Both the position numbers and the translations under genes were made by a program. The notes under the pieces are model-generated. The model was not told the origin of the DNA and did not search any database. It was given only the letters and a program-made list of their open reading frames with translations. From Candidatus Woesearchaeota archaeon (GTDB taxonomy: Archaea; Nanobdellota; Nanobdellia; Woesearchaeales; JAHWIC01), in NCBI GenBank assembly GCA_019322805.1, contig JAHWIC010000001.1:67347-131346 (forward strand): a DNA stretch of 64,000 nt, in the 5' to 3' direction. Numbering within the stretch: the first letter of the stretch is position 1; the number at the start of each line of letters is the position of its first letter. This document shows positions 8,776 through 64,000 of this stretch, piece by piece.

Positions 8776-8818
8776 TTCTGGTTTTGAAAAAAAGGTTTCA
8801 AATATAAATGTTTGCTTT

Positions 8819-10480: not shown

Positions 10481-10596
10481 ATTCTGAAAATTCCTCTTAG
10501 AACTACTGTAAAGGAATTTTCATCTACTTCTAGTTCTTAAGAAACAGAATAAGACGATTTTTGCTTTATAGTAGACTTAAGGCAAAAATCAGATTT
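10481..10596 (+). repeat. Copy A of a four-member intergenic double-hairpin element family (TCTGAAAATTCC...GGAATTTTCATC ... GATTTTTGC...GGCAAAAATCAGATT)
   Basis: Direct alignment with the copies at 40756, 53037 and 61964. The shared terminal and internal inverted motifs are present. Confidence 0.6.
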
Positions 10597-14004: not shown

Positions 14005-14056
14005 TTTTAGAAAGCAAAGCTTTCTAAACCATTTAGGAAAGCTTCGCTTTCCAAAA
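14005..14056. promoter_or_regulatory. Two adjacent palindromes sharing a GAAAGC half-site (TTTAGAAAGC-AAA-GCTTTCTAAA and AGGAAAGC-TTC-GCTTTCC) in the divergent por / ABC1-kinase promoter region, just upstream of a TATA-like GTTTATATAAA
   Basis: Read directly. The palindromes are perfect, with centres about 27 bp apart, and the TATA box lies at 14057-14067. Confidence 0.4.
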
Positions 14057-14091
14057 AGTTTATATAAACCAGATAGAGTATTACTACTTAG

Positions 14092-39300: not shown

Positions 39301-39335
39301 GTTAAGTTTGGAAATTGACCTGATTTAAAAGATTT

Positions 39336-39372
39336 TGGTGGAGGAAGGGGGTGGGAGGGCGGGGATATCCCC
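39336..39372 (+). promoter_or_regulatory. G-rich tract (GGTGGAGGAAGGGGGTGGGAGGGCGGGG) followed by the perfect palindrome GGGGATATCCCC in the divergent region between the radical-SAM-like gene and corA
   Basis: Read directly. The tract stands out as very GC-rich in an AT-rich genome. Confidence 0.3.
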
Positions 39373-40755: not shown

Positions 40756-40885
40756 AATCTGAAAATTCCTTTCAACCGCATGTAATCTGAATTTTCATCC
40801 ACATAATTCCCTTTTAGCTAGAGTATAAAGGAACAACAGCGGATGATTTTTGCCTTAGCCAAAGGAATAAAGCAAAAATCAGATT
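40756..40885 (+). repeat. Copy B of the intergenic double-hairpin element family
   Basis: It begins AATCTGAAAATTCC, continues through TGAATTTTCATCC and CCCTTTTAGCTAGAGTATAAAGGAA, then GGATGATTTTTGCC, and ends AGCAAAAATCAGATT. It is followed by an A/T-rich TTTTATTGATT flank. Confidence 0.6.
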
Positions 40886-40973
40886 GATTTTTATTTTTTA
40901 TTGATTATTTTTTATTGATTTTAGACTCAATAAACAATAATATTTATTAATCGAGGAATAAAACCAAGTAACT

Positions 40974-43381: not shown

Positions 43382-43438
43382 AGTTATCCTATAGAGATAG
43401 TAATACTTATATATAAGGTTTATTTCTTAATTCTCAAT

Positions 43439-50993: not shown

Positions 50994-51149
50994 ACAAAAA
51001 AAATAAGAAACAGGGGTATATAAAGGTTTATTATTTACTGCTGATACTACTTTAAAATAGTATCAAAACCGAAACATTTAAATATAAGTTCTACTTTATA
51101 ATAGTAACACGAAAGGGTGGTGAGATTTACGCCTTTTTTTCAATATTGA

Positions 51150-51310
51150 ACCATAACAAGGTTTTACAATCAAGCTAAACACCTCTTTTCCCCGTTAATG
51201 CCCCACAAGGGCGTTTTCGGGGTTTTACAATCAAAATAAGCTCATAATCACCTCTTTTTCCCTGGTGAGGGTTTCGCAAGAGACTCTCGCTGGGGTTTTA
51301 TAATCACTAA
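51150..51310 (+). repeat. About 70-bp degenerate tandem repeat (x2.5) with units ending GGGGTTTTA(C/T)AATCA(A/C), each containing GC-rich hairpins
   Basis: Read directly. GGTTTTACAATCAA starts at about 51151 and 51223, and GGTTTTATAATCAC at about 51293. CACCTCTTTT(T)CCC recurs at 51179 and 51249. Confidence 0.4.
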
Positions 51311-51730
51311 TTATAATCAATAGGTTATTCTCTATAAAATAGCCACAAAACCAAATGTTTTTATACTTGGATACCCTAATGATATTGTTATGCATTGATT
51401 GCGTAACGAAGCCCGTCACGAGAGTACTCAATGGAGCTGACGGCAATGCCAAGCAATGAGCTTGGGGGTTAGTGTTTCGGGCTACAATCCATTAAATGAC
51501 GATTAAAACATAAATAGAGCAAGCATTAAGCGTTTCATCATTATTATTCATTGATTTGACCTTTAAATTGGAAACAAAAAGCAATTTGACCTATGTTGGT
51601 CAAAAAAGCTAAATAGATTTAGGAGCTTGTTCTATTTGTGATGTGGGGAGAAGCTAATGATCATCAATTCATTTATTGTAGTGAGATGTAGTTCAGCTTC
51701 TTCTTAGACTAATGTTCCGGAGGGATTAAA

Positions 51731-53036: not shown

Positions 53037-53166
53037 AATCTGAAAATTCCTTCCACAACCACTGGAAGGGAATTTTCATCTGCTTTCTTCCCTTTAAGCT
53101 AGAGTATAAAGGAAGTACAGAAGATGATTTTTGCTTTCAGTGGGGAATAAAGCAAAAATCGGATTT
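53037..53166 (+). repeat. Copy C of the intergenic double-hairpin element family
   Basis: It begins AATCTGAAAATTCC, and hairpin 1 is extended (CCTTCCAC/ACTGGAAGG). It continues through GGAATTTTCATC, CCCTTTAAGCTAGAGTATAAAGGAA and GATGATTTTTGC, and ends AGCAAAAATCGGATT. Confidence 0.6.
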
Positions 53167-57390: not shown

Positions 57391-58479
57391 CTATTTAAAC
57401 TTTACGAAATTTAAGCTGTCAACTTTCATTCTTGCTTCAGCTGTTTTCCTTTCAAAGTCATTCATGAATTTTGTCATTAACTCGCAAGCATGCTTTTTAT
57501 CATCGCCGCAGGTTAGTTTTCCTGCTTTGCATTCATCATAGATTTTCTTTAATTCCTTATCGTCTTCTATCAAATGCTGCTTGTATAACTCAAATATCAT
57601 GCATTTCTCCGGTTCACCGCCTAGCTTTTTTTGTTCTTCGACAGTGTCCCTGCCGCCTGTTTTTGCTCGCATCAGTTTTTTAGCTACTTTTTTTGGGTCT
57701 TCTGGCAAGTCAATGCAGCTTTCAGGTTTTGACTTTGACATCTTTAATGAGCCATCCAAGCTAGGAGTGAATTTATGATAAAGGCCGGCAGGCAAAAAGA
57801 ATTTTTTGTCTTTCATCCTTCTGGCGGCATCTCTTGTAAGCCTTATATGCGGGTCCTGGTCAACACCAACTGGGATTACACCAGGCATTTGCTCCTCTAA
57901 TTGAGGATATAGAATATCTCCGATCTGTGTTAAAGCAGAAACAATCCTTGAAGGGTCTGCCAGGCCGTAAACAGCCCTGAACTCATTTAAGGTTATTCTG
58001 TTTGAAGCTTCATAAGCTAATTTTATCACATCCTTGTTTTCTGATTGGAAATAGAAAATTGTTTTCTTAGGGTCCAATCCTAAGGCTAAGTAAGATGGAA
58101 TCTGGAATTCCAAAGCATTCTTCCTTGCTTCCTTTAAACTTACCCCCCTAGCAGCTGCTGATTCTAAATCAGCTACTAAACAAAATGTCTTTGCGCCTTG
58201 TTTCTGGAAATAAGCAATATTTTCAACAACCATCTTTGTTCCAAAATGTACTTTTTGTGCTGTAGGCATTATTCCTGATAGAACATAGAATTTCTTTTTT
58301 TCTTTCATTGCTTTAAGAACAGGTTTCATGTCACGTTCTGCGAAAATGACTCCGCGACGCATTAATCTGTTTGGAGCAGGATAATTGTCAGGGTTAAAAC
58401 TATCTAAACCAAAATCCTTGATTATTTTTGTATAATCCTCTACCAGTTCTGAGCCGTATGGGTCAATTATTTTTGTCAT
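57391..58479 (-). CDS. trpS: Tryptophan--tRNA ligase (archaeal/eukaryotic type)
   Basis: 362 aa. The class I motifs are present (HIGH-like region, GVDQDPHIRLTRD, KMSKS). Confidence 0.85.
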   Translation of the reverse strand: MTKIIDPYGSELVEDYTKIIKDFGLDSFNPDNYPAPNRLMRRGVIFAERDMKPVLKAMKEKKKFYVLSGIMPTAQKVHFGTKMVVENIAYFQKQGAKTFCLVADLESAAARGVSLKEARKNALEFQIPSYLALGLDPKKTIFYFQSENKDVIKLAYEASNRITLNEFRAVYGLADPSRIVSALTQIGDILYPQLEEQMPGVIPVGVDQDPHIRLTRDAARRMKDKKFFLPAGLYHKFTPSLDGSLKMSKSKPESCIDLPEDPKKVAKKLMRAKTGGRDTVEEQKKLGGEPEKCMIFELYKQHLIEDDKELKKIYDECKAGKLTCGDDKKHACELMTKFMNDFERKTAEARMKVDSLNFVKFK

Positions 58480-59279
58480 TTTGTAGCGTTTTTCATTAAC
58501 TTAATATAATTTTCAATCTTCTTTAGCATGATTCTTTTATTTTTCAGATTCTTTTCAATTATTTTTACAACTGCACTTCCAACAATTGCTCCATCAGCTC
58601 CTGCTTTTAGAAGAGCCTTAATATGCTCTGGTTTTTTTATTCCAAAACCAACGCATAATGGCAACTTTGTTTTTGGCCTTATTCTCTTTAGTAATTTTAA
58701 AGTGCTTGTTTCTAATTTTTCTCTTGCTCCTGTTACACCTAATCTTGAAACAACATAAACAAATCCTTTTGTTTTGCTAGCAATTTTCTTTAACCTTTTA
58801 TTATCAGTTAATGGGCTTACAATAAATATTGTATCGACCTTTGCTTTTCTTGCTGCTTTTATGTACGGGTCTGCTTCTTCTATTGGCAAATCAGCAACTA
58901 AAACAGAATCAACGCCTGCATTAGCTGCGTCTTTGTAAAACTTATCAATTCCTCGTTGATAAATCAGGTTAGTGTAAGTTAAAAGTCCAATCGGAATTTT
59001 GTCATTAATTTTTCTTATTTGTTTTGCAAAATTGAAATTTCTATCTGTATTAACCCCTGCTTTTAATGCCCTAACACCAGCTGTTTGTATTGTTGGGCCA
59101 TCTGCAATGGGCTCTGAAAAAGTGAATCCTAATTCAAGTATATCTGCGCCAGCATTGATTATTGTTTTAATTATTTCTAAGCTTAACTTATAGTTTGGAT
59201 CTCCAGCTACTACAAACGGAACTAATGCCTTTTCCTTATTTTTCTTTAGTTTCTTGAATGTTTTTTTGTATCTGCTCAT
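58476..59279 (-). CDS. trpA: Tryptophan synthase alpha chain
   Basis: 267 aa. The TrpA signature [18 protein letters not shown] is present. Confidence 0.85.
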
Positions 59280-60487
59280 ATCTTAACTCCCATCTCTTTT
59301 GCGGCATGAACAACATCCTTATCTCCTCTGCCAGATAAATTAACAATCACTAATTTGTTCTTAAAGCGTTTAGCATTCTTTACTAAATAAGCAACAGCAT
59401 GTGCTGATTCTAAAGCTGGAATAATGCCTTCTTCATCACTTAATAATTTGAAAGCATCAAGGCACTCCTGGTTTGTTGCATATGAGTACTCTGCTCTTTT
59501 TAATTCCCTGAGATGTGTGTGCTCAGGACCAACTGCGCAATAATCCAAGCCTGCTGATACTGAATGGGTGTTGTATATCTGGCCGTATTTATCCTGCAAA
59601 ACATAAGTGAATGTACCGTGAATTACTCCGGGTCTTCCTATCTTTTTATCTGCAAACCTTGCTGCATGCCTTCCGGATGTAATTCCTGTTCCGCCTGCTT
59701 CTACTCCAATTAATGTTACTTTTTTGTCTTTAAGGAAAGCTTTGAATATTCCAAGCGCATTACTTCCACCGCCAACACAAGCGATAATTGCATCTGGCAG
59801 CTTGCCCTCTACTGCAAGTATTTGTTTTTTTGCTTCTTTTCCTATTACTGACTGGAAATGTGCTACCATGCTTGGATAAGGGTGAGGTCCTAAAACACTT
59901 CCAAGCAGATAATGTGTTGTTTCAACACTTGAAGTCCAGTCACGCAAAGCCTGATTAATTGCATCCTTTAGTGTTTTTGAGCCTGTTGTAACAGGAATAA
60001 CCTTTGCTCCAAGCAGCTTCATCCTGAAAACATTAAGCTTTTGACGCTCAATATCAACAGTACCCATGTAAATATCGCGCTCTAAACCAAGTTTTGCAGC
60101 TGCTGTTGCAACAGCAACTCCATGCTGGCCAGCTCCTGTTTCTGCTATAATCCTTGTCTTTCCCATGTATTTTGCAAGTAAAGCCTGGCCAAGTGCATTG
60201 TTTATCTTATGAGCACCTGTATGAGCCAGGTCTTCTCTTTTTAGATAGATTTTACAGCCAAGTTTTTTGCTTAATCTTGGGCAATAAGTCAAAGGTGTTG
60301 GTCTTCCAACGTAATTCTTGAACAAGTCATTAAGCTCTTTATTGAATTTTTTATTATTCCTGTATCTATTAAAAGCTGCTTGCAACTCTTTTACAGCTGG
60401 CATCAATGTTTCTGGAACAAAAACACCGCCGTACTTCCCAAATCTTCCTTTTTTCATTTCAAATTCTCCGAATTTGTAATGCACCAA
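59276..60487 (-). CDS. trpB: Tryptophan synthase beta chain
   Basis: 403 aa. The PLP lysine region ([13 protein letters not shown]) and GRFGKYGG are present. Confidence 0.9.
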
Positions 60488-60502
60488 AAATGCGAAGCAT
60501 TT

Positions 60503-61150
60503 TTAAGTGCATTTTTTTGCTCTTTGAATGAATTTTTCAAGCTTGATTGGATCTTTCTTCCCTGGTTTTGCTTTTACTCCGCTATTTGTATCAACTGCAA
60601 ATGGCTCTACTTTTTCAATTGCAATCCCAACATTCGTCGGAGTCAAACCACCGGCTAAAAATACCTTGCATTTTACTGATTTAACTATTTTTCTGCTAAT
60701 CTCCCAGTTATGAACTACCCCTGTTCCGCCGAGTTTGCCTTTTGCTTTTGTATCGAGCAAGATATAATCAACATATTTCCCGTATTTTTTAGCTTGCTCT
60801 ATTGCTGATTCATCTTCCACATGAATTGTTTTTGTGAGCTTTGTCTTTGGAAGTGCTTTTCTTATTTTTCCAATGACCTTTAAGTCAACCTTTGGATTAT
60901 GAAGCTGAATTATCTCTGGTTTTATCTCCTTTGCAAGCTCGATTATCTCTTTTGCCTTGTCTAAGTAAGTCACTAAAACTGATCGTGACTCTAAAGGCAG
61001 CCTTTTTATGAGCTTTTTTGCCTCTTCTCTTGTGATTGAATCTTCTGAAAAATCAACCTCTACTATGAAACCCAAAAAATCTGCACCAAGCTCAGCTGCT
61101 CTGAATGCATCATGCTCATTTGTGTTTCCGCAGATCTTTACTTTAGTCAT
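60503..61150 (-). CDS. trpF: Phosphoribosylanthranilate isomerase
   Basis: 215 aa. The (beta/alpha)8 TrpF motifs KICGNT and FLAGGLTPTNV are present. Confidence 0.8.
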   Translation of the reverse strand: MTKVKICGNTNEHDAFRAAELGADFLGFIVEVDFSEDSITREEAKKLIKRLPLESRSVLVTYLDKAKEIIELAKEIKPEIIQLHNPKVDLKVIGKIRKALPKTKLTKTIHVEDESAIEQAKKYGKYVDYILLDTKAKGKLGGTGVVHNWEISRKIVKSVKCKVFLAGGLTPTNVGIAIEKVEPFAVDTNSGVKAKPGKKDPIKLEKFIQRAKKCT

Positions 61151-61790
61151 TTGCAGCTTCTCTTAATTTTTTTATTGTTCCTACACGGTCTTCTTTGCCA
61201 AATATTGCACTTCCTGCAACAAAAACATTTGCGCCTGCTTTTGCTGCTTTTCCTATTGTCTCTTCATTAATTCCTCCATCAATCTCTATGTCAAGCTCTG
61301 GCTTTAATTTTCTCAGTTCTTCTACCTTAGGCAACACATCTGGAATAAACTTCTGTCCTGGATAGCCAGGGTTTACTGACATAATCAAAACCATACCGAC
61401 ATCATCAATATATTGCTTTATTTTATCCAAGGGTGTTGGAGGATTTATTGAAATTCCTACTTTGATTCCCTTGCTTCTTATTAATTCAAAGGCTTCTTTT
61501 ATATCATCCTTGCATTCCTCATGTATTGTTATTATTTTAGCACCAGCATCTGCATAATCTTCTATAAATCCGTCTTTAATAGGATGTTTAACCATTAAAT
61601 GGACATCTTTTGGAAGCTTTGAGCTTACTGCTTTGATCTCTTCTGCCTTGAATGTCTTTGGAGGAACAAACTTTCCGTCCATTATATCAACGTGTATTAA
61701 ATCTGCAACTGGCTCTATTTCATTCACTTCTTCCTGCAATTTTTCTTTTTTTGCAGATAATATTGATGGTGCGATTTTTATTTTTGGCAT
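61143..61790 (-). CDS. rpe: Ribulose-phosphate 3-epimerase
   Basis: 215 aa. The motif IAPSILSA...HVDIMDGKFVP is present. It overlaps trpF by 8 nt. Confidence 0.85.
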   Translation of the reverse strand: MPKIKIAPSILSAKKEKLQEEVNEIEPVADLIHVDIMDGKFVPPKTFKAEEIKAVSSKLPKDVHLMVKHPIKDGFIEDYADAGAKIITIHEECKDDIKEAFELIRSKGIKVGISINPPTPLDKIKQYIDDVGMVLIMSVNPGYPGQKFIPDVLPKVEELRKLKPELDIEIDGGINEETIGKAAKAGANVFVAGSAIFGKEDRVGTIKKLREAAND

Positions 61791-61963
61791 TTTATTATCA
61801 ATTTATTTTATCACTAGGTTTATGATACGCATGCACAATTAGTTGTGCATTTGCTTGTTTTTATTACCTTAAATCATCATTTAATAACAATTATTCAACG
61901 AAAAATGCTGACGCATTTTTCTAGTGTAGTAAATTATTTTATAATTTATACACAATCCGAAAA

Positions 61964-62150
61964 TTCCTTTCACAACCAAGTTAAAGGTTATAGTAAGCGA
62001 AATTATATAAGCAATAGTTTCGCTTACTAAATAGTAAACGCAATCTTTCATAAAATAGTTGCGTTTACTAAATTTTCATCCGCTTTCTTTCCTTTAGCAA
62101 TGACTGTGGATGATTTTTGCCTTAACGTGGGTATCAAGCAAAAATCAGAT
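61964..62150 (+). repeat. Copy D of the intergenic double-hairpin element family, carrying a roughly 75-bp insertion of two perfect hairpins; it sits between trpC and rpe
   Basis: It begins AATCCGAAAATTCC. The insertion holds TAGTAAGCGAAA/TTTCGCTTACTA at 61991-62029 and AGTAAACGCAA/TTGCGTTTACT at 62033-62069. It continues through AATTTTCATCC and GGATGATTTTTGCC and ends AGCAAAAATCAGATT. Confidence 0.6.
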
Positions 62151-62228
62151 TGTTGCCGAGTGAAACGAGCGCAACTAAGGAATCTCTGATTCCTGTTTAT
62201 TTTTCTTCTATTGATCCTTTTTTATTGA

Positions 62229-62990
62229 TTATTTTATTAATTCTTTAATCTTCTTCTTTATATTAGTTGATTCCATTAATGATGTTCCAATTAATATTGC
62301 GTTAACCTTTCCTCTAACCTTTTTAACATCAGATCTTTTGCTAAAACCTGATTCTGAAACAATTATATTACATTCTGGAATCTTTTTTACTAATTTTAAT
62401 GTAGTATTCAAATTAACTTTCAATGTTTTAAGGTTTCTATTATTGATCCCAATAATTCTTGCTTTTGCATTAAGGGCTTTTTTCAGTTCCTTATCATTAT
62501 GAACCTCAACAAGGCAGTCCATAGTGTATTTATCAGCTATTTTAATGAACTTTGATATTTTTTCTTTTGGTAAGAGCCTTGCTATCAATAATATTGCATC
62601 AGCACCGTAATGCCTTGATTCATAAACCTGGTATTCATCAATAATAAAGTCCTTTCTAAGCACCGGTATCTTTGTTGCTTTTCTTGCCTGGTTCAGGAAT
62701 TGAGGCAAACCAGCAAAAAACATGCAGTCTGTTAACACAGATATTGCTGCTGCTCCTGCTTTCTCATACTCTTTAGCAATCCTTGAAGGGTGGATTCTTT
62801 TCATTATAATCCCTTTTGATGGCGAGGCAGCCTTTATCTCTGCAATAAGGCTTATGTCCCTAGCAGTTATTGCTTTTGCGAAATTCCTATTAGATTTTTT
62901 CAGCTTAGATTTAAAGCTGCTTAAAGGACAATATTTCTTGCTTTGCTTTACTTCCAGCTTCTTATTTTTTATAATTTTATCTAATACCAT
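62229..62990 (-). CDS. trpC: Indole-3-glycerol phosphate synthase
   Basis: About 253 aa with IGPS motifs (IAEIKAASPSKG, LVEVHN). Confidence 0.8.
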   Translation of the reverse strand: MVLDKIIKNKKLEVKQSKKYCPLSSFKSKLKKSNRNFAKAITARDISLIAEIKAASPSKGIIMKRIHPSRIAKEYEKAGAAAISVLTDCMFFAGLPQFLNQARKATKIPVLRKDFIIDEYQVYESRHYGADAILLIARLLPKEKISKFIKIADKYTMDCLVEVHNDKELKKALNAKARIIGINNRNLKTLKVNLNTTLKLVKKIPECNIIVSESGFSKRSDVKKVRGKVNAILIGTSLMESTNIKKKIKELIK

Positions 62991-63021
62991 TTTAATCATG
63001 AAACAAGCAACCAAGATATGA

Positions 63022-64000
63022 TTACTTGTTTTTATTTGTCCAGTCTATTAACTGATTTAATTTTTCCAGTGCTTTACCAGAATCAATAGAATCCTTTGCA
63101 ATGTCTATGCCATTCTGTATGCTGTCTGCTTTGCCTGCAACATAAAGAGCAGTGCCTGCATTTAGCAAAACAACATCTCTTTTTGGACCTTTTTCTTCTC
63201 CTTTCAATATGCTTAGTATTATTTTCTTATTATCTTCAGGAGTGCCTCCTTTAATTGCTCCTAAACCAGCGAGCTTAATACCAAAGTCTGTTGGTTTTAC
63301 TTTGTAGGTTGTTACATGTTTGCCTTTTACTTCAGAAACCTTTGTTTCGGCTTCTAAAGTCATCTCATCCAAACCATTGCCATGAACAACAACAGCATGT
63401 TTAACTCCTAATAAGCCTAAAACCTCTGCTAAAGGTTCTGTCAGTTTCTCATCAAAAACACCCATTAATTCATAAGGTGCTTCAGCTGGATTTGTTAAAG
63501 GACCTAGGATATTGAAAACAGTTCTTACAGCAAGCTCTTTTCTTGGGCCAATTGCGTATTTCATTGCTCCATGGAACTTAGGAGCAAACATATATCCAAT
63601 TCCAACTTCACTTATGCATTTCTCAACCTGTTTTGGCTCCAGCATTATATTAACACCTAAAGCAGTTAGAACATCAGCTGAACCGCATTTGCTTGAAACG
63701 CCCTTGTTGCCGTGCTTAGCAACTGGAACACCTGCACCGGCTACAACAAAAGCAGCTGCAGTTGATATATTGAATGTTCCTGATTTATCTCCGCCAGTGC
63801 CGACAACATCAACAAGTTGATCAGAATTCTTTGGCTTGATTCTTGATGCTTTCTGCCTCATTACTTTTGCACAAGCTGTTATTTCCTCAATCGTTTCTCC
63901 TTTTAATCTTAAAGCTATGAGAAAGCCTGCAATCTGAGCATCAGTTGCTTTTCCGCTCATGATCTCATTCATTACCTCTTCAGCTTCTTTCAGCTTAAGA
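63022..64000 (-). CDS. trpD: Anthranilate phosphoribosyltransferase (N-terminus runs past the window edge)
   Basis: TrpD motifs are present ([27 protein letters not shown]). The ORF is still open at position 64000. Confidence 0.8.

Follow-up and report, generated by a model that had tools for sequence, protein, structure and literature searches.

Why are trpC and rpe, two members of an otherwise co-directional array of tryptophan genes, held apart by 438 bp of hairpin-rich DNA? The array lies in a 64,000-nt, AT-rich (36.8% G+C) stretch of contig JAHWIC010000001.1 of a Candidatus Woesearchaeota archaeon; this whole stretch, at its full length, is referred to here as the window. The initial annotation had placed in the trpC-rpe gap one copy (copy D) of a repeated palindromic element, and the gene calls on which that placement relied are upheld by Pfam (Table 1). 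We put at about 0.7 the probability that copy D represents the composite insertion of a modular palindromic repeat which is specific to this lineage, is present in many copies and belongs with the small non-coding elements of the MITE (miniature inverted-repeat transposable element), ERIC, BOX or Correia type.

In the closest relative found (L124; rpe 92% identical in protein and ~83% in DNA) the gene order is the same and the stop codon of trpC shares bases with the start of rpe (TAATG), leaving no gap, which bears out the earlier proposal of an insertion into a once contiguous trp cluster. The reading frame and stop codon of trpC are intact in the window, the C-terminus of its product aligning with TrpC of L124 to the last residue. 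The element has landed exactly at the stop/start overlap of trpC and rpe, and neither gene was damaged. In more distant relatives rpe is placed after trpA and no element is present. The site of another copy in the window (copy C) is empty in three relatives whose DnaG proteins are 87-91% identical to that of the window (L215, L217 and L218), the gaps there being 29, 55 and 58 bp versus 214 bp here, and other contigs encoding the exact DnaG protein have the same filled site. An exact-protein look-up with CutA, aimed at strain polymorphism at copy A, found no record.

The repeated core is ~115-130 nt long and has four copies in the window, all of them on the + strand (4 matches of the core pattern versus 0 expected), although the neighbouring genes lie on both strands. 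It forms a closed three-hairpin fold with no unpaired junction bases, whose consensus comprises a closing stem (AATCTGA/TCAGATT), hairpin 1 (AAATTCCTTT...AAAGGAATTT), hairpin 2 (TCATCC...GGATGA) and hairpin 3 (TTTTTGC...GCAAAAA). Scanning of public metagenomes with one pattern spanning hairpins 1-3 gave 82 stretches, of which ~70 are true copies, and clustering reduced these to 58 distinct genomic sites, nearly all from a few related sediment metagenomes (JGI 3300001753, SMTZ1, Ga0209427 and Ga0209636). The elements range from 115 to 440 bp, and the sole open reading frame (ORF) in copy D is a 56-aa run across hairpins.

Around the core, the family is built of exchangeable parts. Hairpin 2 exists in at least five unrelated variants. 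The T-rich tail consists of 2-8 tandem units of ~13 nt, each ending in ATTGAT, and in many copies it is matched by an A-rich 5' arm forming its imperfect inverted partner. In ~27 copies a 105-nt module, the L-arm, takes the place of the A-rich arm on the 5' side (40 L-arm matches in 35 element-bearing loci), and further accessory modules exist. Truncated 3' core fragments followed by a second tail were found at several loci; among the tails of L135, L137, L154, L169, L179 and L197, several hold a truncated core 3' end (GGxGCAAAAATCxGATT) with a second tail behind it. Profiles (nhmmer) of the core and of the L-arm gave no match in ~75 kb of sequence from relatives. Since these ~75 kb are free of copies, we conclude that the family has expanded recently in this lineage. 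A scan of a genome collection with the hairpin-3 pattern alone was discarded, the matches listed being unrelated bacterial terminator-like hairpins with no real copy among them, and a viral origin was rejected after viral contigs were found to contain no copy by either the core or the hairpin-a pattern.

Every 10-nt bin of the 438-bp gap recurs elsewhere in BLAST comparisons with other loci: the L-arm at ~25-30 loci, a 60-nt module at 6 loci besides the L181 allele, a 3' accessory module at ~8 loci, and also the core, its nested 83-nt module and the tail. The L-arm profile finds a single match in the window (61786-61893, E = 6.6e-23). The 60-nt module contains the hairpins GAAAAATGC-tgac-GCATTTTTC (61900-61921) and GTGTAgTAAATTAT-ttt-ATAATTTATACAC (61924-61953) and is common to L137, L139, L164, L169, L194 and L138 at 85-91% identity. 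The 3' accessory module is found in L162, L193, L205, L175, L179, L138 and L169, while L192 carries its reverse complement on the 5' side.

The first hairpin of copy D had been described as expanded by about 75 bp that hold two perfect inverted repeats of 12 and 11 bp. The expansion is real, but it measures 83 nt (61988-62070); both inverted repeats are also real, and the second is one base pair longer than stated. Repeat a, TAGTAAGCGAAA/TTTCGCTTACTA (61991-62002/62018-62029), is perfect over 12 bp and 94% over 16 nt; repeat b, TAGTAAACGCAA/TTGCGTTTACTA (62032-62043/62059-62070), is perfect over 12 bp. At least two perfect inverted repeats whose arms measure 11 nt or more were reached in just 0.2% of 1000 first-order Markov simulations of the gap, so that the pair is not due to chance. 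Without the insert, hairpin 1 has an outer stem AAATT/AATTT and an inner hairpin CCTTT-cacaaccaagtt-AAAGG, whose 3' strand is broken by the 83-nt module. The gap holds at least five further hairpins that the earlier description did not include (61831-61838/61843-61850, 61900-61908/61913-61921, 61924-61937/61941-61953, 62152-62175 and 62178-62194). In RNA folding against shuffled controls, the 200-nt core has z-scores of -7.5 and -8.4 on the two strands and the 438-nt gap one of -8.0.

Table 1. Genes of the trp cluster, parts of copy D and the other copies of the element in the window
Feature	Coordinates	Strand	Basis or remark
trpD	63022-63972	-	Pfam
trpC (indole-3-glycerol-phosphate synthase)	62229-63014	-	Pfam IGPS, E = 5.8e-87
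trpC-rpe gap, whole composite insertion	61791-62228		438 bp, trpC stop to rpe start
rpe (ribulose-phosphate 3-epimerase)	61143-61790	-	Pfam Ribul_P_3_epim, E = 5.2e-64; start codon intact
trpF	60503-61150	-	Pfam
trpB	59276-60487	-	Pfam
trpA	58476-59279	-	Pfam
trpS	57391-58479	-	Pfam
L-arm, ~105-nt module adjoining the rpe ATG	61791-61893	-	nhmmer
Accessory module, 60 nt, two hairpins	61894-61953		Inverted-repeat search; 85-91% identity to other loci
Copy D core	61954-62151	+	In the trpC-rpe gap
Closing stem P1, 5' strand AATCCGA	61954-61960	+	Pairs with 62145-62151; pair counts over 62 copies, minimum free energy folds
Hairpin 1	61961-62075	+	Fold; comparison with uninterrupted copies, e.g. 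L150
Nested 83-nt module	61988-62070	+	Repeat search; comparison with other copies
Hairpin 2, short variant TCATCCGC...GTGGATGA	62076-62113	+	One of at least 5 alternative hairpin-2 modules
Hairpin 3, TTTTTGCC...GCAAAAA	62114-62144	+	Most conserved part of the core
Closing stem P1, 3' strand TCAGATT	62145-62151	+	Pair counts, fold
3' accessory module, two hairpins	62152-62194		GTTGC...GCAAC 62152-62175; AGGAAT-ctctg-ATTCCT 62178-62194
T-rich tail, two (T)n-ATTGAT units	62195-62228	+	Tail consensus of ~60 copies; T-run census
Copy A	10481-10596	+	nhmmer E = 2.5e-23; between diverging Nop5 (-) and cutA (+)
Copy B	40756-40886	+	nhmmer E = 8.9e-30; upstream of the ABCE1/RLI gene
Copy C	53037-53166	+	nhmmer E = 7.6e-35; between convergent dnaG and a gene of 454 aa

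In the nested module a 39-nt perfect hairpin unit stands twice in direct orientation (a, 61991-62029; b, 62032-62070), both times with a 15-nt loop ending in AATAG. The kinship of the two sub-hairpins noticed earlier is thereby confirmed; their supposed duplication within copy D is not, as the module is present in at least nine other sequences. In eight of these (L143, L158, L181, L186, L196, L204, L205 and L209) one loop single-nucleotide polymorphism is the sole difference, and the module always sits in hairpin 1, between AAAGG and AATTTTCAT, in the same orientation; the ninth, L198, likewise matches it. The surrounding sequences of hairpins 1, 2 and 3 in these hosts are as divergent as those of any two family members. 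Because a near-identical module occupies the same site in otherwise differing copies, it was not born in copy D; judging from these comparisons, it is secondary to and younger than the copies in which it sits, having spread among them through gene conversion or by inserting at a specific site. It has neither inverted ends nor a flanking duplication, and a hairpin-directed, single-strand transposase of the IS200/IS605 type is the best fit for it, which we offer as a lead. At another locus (L138, reverse strand, ~580-715) hairpin 1 holds a different, G+C-richer insert of ~125 nt replacing the 83-nt module. Archaeal bulge-helix-bulge introns have two 3-nt bulges around a 4-bp helix at functional RNA junctions; such a reading of the module was set aside after inspection by eye, with no formal search run, revealed no motif at AAAGG|TTATAG or TTTACTA|AATTTTC.

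How such elements were dispersed can be approached from their ends and from their possible helpers. Either transposition in trans would have carried the elements to new sites, or copies would have recombined with, and converted, one another. With respect to the features by which MITEs are recognized, the repeats are small (MITEs being below ~600 bp), non-coding and multi-copy (58 sites; 4 copies per 64 kb) and polymorphic for insertion, as is evident from the empty copy D and copy C sites in relatives. In many copies imperfect A-rich/T-rich inverted arms of 35-55 nt end near ATCAAT/ATTGAT, the ends not being sharp, and comparison of filled and empty copy C sites revealed no clear target-site duplication.

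Several observations weigh against assigning copy D to this kind of element. Copy D is without clean terminal inverted repeats; like copy C, it also lacks the 5' inverted arm; and no clear target-site duplication borders copy D, where only AAT or an ambiguous 9-mer (TAATAAAAT) is repeated in low-complexity DNA. No transposase was found in the window with Pfam (20 further ORFs included), clustering of 534 ORFs from ~350 kb of element-bearing contigs yielded no multi-copy protein family, and a tblastn search of the window and the loci collected with a rough consensus of an IS200-type TnpA gave no match. Unrelated hairpin-2 variants all retain hairpin potential, a possible sign that structure is selected or that some mechanism generates palindromes. 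Finally, the TTTAAGG box carried by copy D is weaker than the native TTTATATA boxes. Nor did the window yield an autonomous insertion sequence (IS) with matching ends. As the inverted ends are imperfect, no consistent target duplication is apparent and no autonomous partner was found, we do not file the family as a proven MITE; it is placed among the non-autonomous intergenic palindromic repeats, a fairly ordinary kind of genomic parasite, previously uncharacterised in this instance.

A more ambitious interpretation, which we regard as rather unlikely, would make the family a new class of archaeal mobile hairpin element, with a four-way-junction core recognised by a structure-specific enzyme, portable expression modules and a homing-like 83-nt element. 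The portable modules would be a TATA-like box, a 5' leader hairpin and a ribosome-binding site, taking over the translation, and perhaps the transcription, of the downstream gene, and the 83-nt double-hairpin element would target one phosphodiester bond in hairpin 1. If this were true, copy D would exemplify how an operon is naturally rewired in a reduced DPANN genome.

The absence of classical ends also fits another type of mobile DNA. The whole element, or at least its 83-nt module, could be a derivative of an IS200/IS605-type single-strand transposon (palindrome-associated transposable element, PATE), mobilized in trans by a Y1 transposase that recognises hairpins and inserts at a short specific target with no duplication. 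Copies on one contig (L162, L165, L187, L190, L200 and L209 are multi-copy contigs) are co-oriented in 9 adjacent pairs and opposed in 2, and all four window copies are on the + strand; this co-orientation may reflect a replication-related strand bias, and it counts in favour of a PATE origin. The same holds for the two subterminal hairpins of the 83-nt module, which stand in direct orientation without inverted ends, for its single insertion point after AAAGG, with a single orientation wherever the position is readable and no target duplication, and for its uniformity, far greater than that of its hosts. TTGAT, the target of ISDra2, recurs at element ends, which may point the same way. However, neither the window nor the ~350 kb of element-bearing contigs showed a TnpA or a TnpB (the test for TnpA being crude), the hairpins lie 0-3 nt from the junctions, unlike the spacing in IS608, and gene conversion between copies gives the same pattern. 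A PATE origin is given a low probability in our assessment.

A compact fold of this kind might equally be read as RNA. According to this explanation the core would be a multi-copy small RNA (sRNA) gene transcribed from the + strand, with an AT-rich box ~26 nt 5' of the closing stem as its TATA element and its end at the U-rich tail, and from copy D an RNA antisense to the trp cluster would be made independently, its hairpin 1 being enlarged. The closed three-hairpin structure, followed within 3-4 nt by TTTATTTTT in most copies, the five T-runs on the + strand of copy D, the fold z-score of -8.4, the co-orientation of adjacent copies and the predominance of elements antisense to neighbouring genes (22 versus 7) are consistent with it. 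The substitutions tell otherwise. Over the helices of 62 copies read on the + strand there are 56 G·U versus 65 A·C pairs, and because these counts are similar neither strand is favoured. RNAalifold applied to 24 copies of the same length recovered the three hairpins with a covariation term of +0.11, only 1 of 27 pairs being compensatory. Rfam gave no match at gathering score in the whole window, and permissive local scans (E ≤ 10) named no family, the best scores being 20-22 bits against thresholds of 39-100. Moreover, the T-rich tail is in many copies the mere inverted partner of the A-rich 5' arm, hairpin 2 is freely swapped for unrelated variants, truncated copies exist and the sites are empty in close relatives. 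For want of covariation, of a G·U excess and of an Rfam family, a DNA repeat is favoured over an sRNA gene, which we consider improbable; the fold would be conserved through the youth and similarity of the copies rather than by detectable selection on RNA, although a functional master copy may exist among the DNA repeats. Other RNA readings were tried and dropped: a tRNA or tRNA-derived element was rejected, ARAGORN finding no tRNA in the window, and ribozymes (hammerhead or other), C/D-box and H/ACA RNAs, prompted by CUGA/GAUGA strings at the junction, were dropped because the order and spacing of the boxes do not fit and Rfam is blank.

What, then, does the insertion do to the trp cluster? 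At the 58 sites the 5' (+) side points toward a gene start in 34 cases and toward a stop in 19, whereas the tail side points toward a stop in 34 and toward a start in 15; between co-directional genes the antisense orientation, which is that of copy D, prevails (22 versus 7 sense; p = 0.008). The 27 L-arms beside a core face a gene start 19 times and a stop 6 times. Where the neighbour is callable (25 cases), a start codon borders the L-arm 19 times, and since in five of these, situated in divergent regions, the element is the only upstream DNA, the L-arm must be at least promoter-compatible.

The initial annotation had suggested that the insertion might split the cluster into two transcription units, or act as an intra-operon terminator, attenuator or processing site; on this view it would divide trpD-trpC from rpe-trpF-trpB-trpA-trpS and so regulate tryptophan synthesis. 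Archaeal termination relies on U5-U7 tracts, often consecutive, rather than hairpins (PMC7515710). On the + strand the tail of copy D is rich in U, and on the trp-sense strand in A; the + strand has five T-runs, and the T5 and T6 tracts of the tail, 14 bases apart, resemble the clustered T-tracts of the native dnaG terminator. On the trp-sense strand there are two isolated T5 runs, both in 3' arms of hairpins. These runs, the very stable structure of the 438-nt trp-sense RNA (-115 kcal/mol, z = -8), the loss of stop/start coupling and the double-stranded arms, which are possible RNase substrates (cf. the Correia elements, PMC10969869), would suit a terminator or a processing site. Yet the element stands beside ~58 unrelated gene pairs and is thus not specific to trp, the only ORF on the sense strand of the gap (61881-62051) contains no Trp codon and hence no Trp leader peptide, the consecutive U-tracts are on the opposite strand, a scan for bacterial-type terminators finds sites on the + strand only, and the orientation of copy D is the predominant one, which suggests that it is the tolerated, non-polar one. 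A terminator or attenuator thus found no backing in the sequence, and a role in splitting the operon is in our view doubtful. Copy D is not a dedicated tryptophan regulator and reveals no new mechanism of tryptophan control.

Strong termination or attenuation is unsupported because the U-rich tail is antisense and the arm on the rpe side carries GTGAT ribosome-binding-like motifs. The favoured orientation appears to keep the terminator-like tail off the sense strand and to shield the latter from U-tracts, and efficient termination is therefore less likely. The trp-sense transcript would carry the A-rich complement of the tail, so that transcription from trpD-trpC would mostly read through the long structured spacer. 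The L-arm of copy D contains three GTGAT/TTGAT motifs, of which the one closest to rpe precedes the ATG by 8 nt, as well as a hairpin (61831-61850) and the weak TATA-like TTTAAGG box ~90 nt 5' of rpe. Translation of rpe would start from these ribosome-binding-like motifs, replacing the stop/start coupling of trpC and rpe, and the box may serve as a minor, element-borne promoter. All three steps, i.e. read-through, use of the motifs and promoter activity, are deduced from sequence features. Native internal genes of the window have GGAGGTG/GGTGAT ribosome-binding sites. Native first genes show a strong (A)AAnnTTTATATA box (TTTATATA) ~33 nt 5' of the ATG (e.g. 1000-1037, 8776-8818, 14050-14091, 43382-43438 and 50994-51030), a distance which implies leaderless mRNAs or mRNAs with very short leaders; rpe has no such box at this distance.

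We give practically no weight to the idea that the gap is an assembly artefact, a repeat-induced chimera joining trpC and rpe: contigs do often break at the element (L002, L004, L186, L196, L205 and L210 of independent assemblies break inside it, those of L002 and L004 within the L-arm) and one sequence links rpe to a NOG1-type GTPase gene via a junction inside the element, but the independent ENA assembly L001 has the identical 438-bp gap with both flanks, the JGI contig L210 is 100% identical over 61991-62290, and the gene order trpC-rpe is common to L124. In the linking sequence (L003, which is L181, JGI2171J19970_10014614, 1099-1650) the GTPase gene instead of trpC lies upstream of rpe, and the sequence agrees fully with copy D in hairpin 1, 83-nt module included, but not in hairpins 2 and 3. 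A similar junction is seen in L138 and L169, which are 99.8% identical downstream of the L138 insert and different upstream. Such in-element junctions between different neighbourhoods represent either recombination between two copies or assembly chimeras.

Among known repeats, the Correia elements (CREE/NEMIS), a MITE of Neisseria, come close: they too are small, non-coding, high-copy and intergenic, and often lie directly upstream of genes; they carry promoters with outward activity and form long hairpins in transcripts, where they can be co-transcribed and processed by RNase III cleavage (PMC10969869). In the Correia elements, however, the 26-nt terminal inverted repeats are clear and a TA is duplicated, whereas here the arms are imperfect or (copies C and D) missing and no consistent duplication occurs; the closed three-hairpin junction core and the DPANN-type archaeal host, with archaeal promoter and terminator signals, are further differences. 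ERIC/IRU of enterobacteria and BOX of Streptococcus pneumoniae resemble our family as modular, mosaic intergenic palindromes with enlarged variants at fixed internal positions. In ERIC these are ~70-bp internal insertions at fixed sites. Both families are bacterial and unrelated in sequence, while here an arm with ribosome-binding-like motifs adjoins start codons. The nesting of one element in another has a counterpart in BOX, RUP and SPRITE elements (PMC10969869).

Extragenic palindromes lacking classical inverted ends and duplications, strand-biased in orientation and recognised as hairpins, are also represented by REP/BIME with RAYT and by the PATEs of IS200/IS605. REP sequences are tagged by GTAG/CGTC (PMC3733652), and no such head was seen by eye on our hairpins; the units are much larger than the 20-40-nt REP/BIME palindromes, and the (crude) test for a Y1 transposase gave no match in the sequence examined. 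The short hairpin units that multiply in AT-rich intergenic DNA of sponge mitochondria are comparable, yet organellar and much simpler, with no flanking functional modules (PMC2800124). In a census of 8220 archaeal genomes, a Woesearchaeal genome was among the densest in MITEs, with 105 per Mb (PMC11602168). Archaeal MITEs (SM1-4 of Sulfolobus, and those of Halobacterium and Haloquadratum) share with our family the character of non-autonomous repeats in archaeal intergenic DNA, but their defining mark is terminal inverted repeats related to those of known IS elements. Our literature search found no paper describing this family and, to our knowledge, a family with a three-hairpin core, a nested 83-nt module and an arm adjoining start codons has not been individually described.

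The remainder of the window is clearly archaeal in gene content (Nop5, ABCE1/RLI and the archaeal DnaG were among the genes recognized with Pfam), and proteins identical to the rpe and DnaG products are labelled "Candidatus Woesearchaeota archaeon" by NCBI. The trp cluster (57391-63972) includes rpe and ends with trpS, the gene of the Trp-tRNA synthetase; the complete pathway is notable in a DPANN-type archaeon. As rpe follows trpA in distant relatives (including L127 and L128), where additional small ORFs lie between trp genes, the cluster has been rearranged within the group. Two other intergenic regions of the window deserve mention. A 738-bp stretch 5' of dnaG (50994-51730) is ~80% identical over its full length in L215 and L218, and mostly so in L217; G+C-rich helix-like blocks occur in it, and a GGTTTTAYAATCA-type motif is present three times, while searches of it for an ORF of at least 90 aa, a tRNA or an Rfam match (even at E ≤ 1) found none. 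This stretch is a candidate for an unannotated structural RNA. At ~39335-39365, within a 76-bp divergent region between a radical-SAM gene and corA, there is a G-rich, G-quadruplex-like run (GGTGGAGGAAGGGGGTGGGAGGGCGGGG) that stands out against the 37% G+C of the genome.

Genomes of the DPANN type are small and tightly packed, with genes that often overlap. A burst of ~60 copies in one lineage, of which relatives with 85-92% protein identity have none, indicates that even such compact genomes can still be quickly invaded. Copy D, for its part, illustrates how an insertion at a stop/start overlap within a biosynthetic cluster may be tolerated when U-tracts are kept off the sense strand and a ribosome-binding site is supplied. 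The family also accounts for contig breaks and possible chimeric joins in Woesearchaeal metagenome-assembled genomes, and for long, apparently "empty" intergenic regions.

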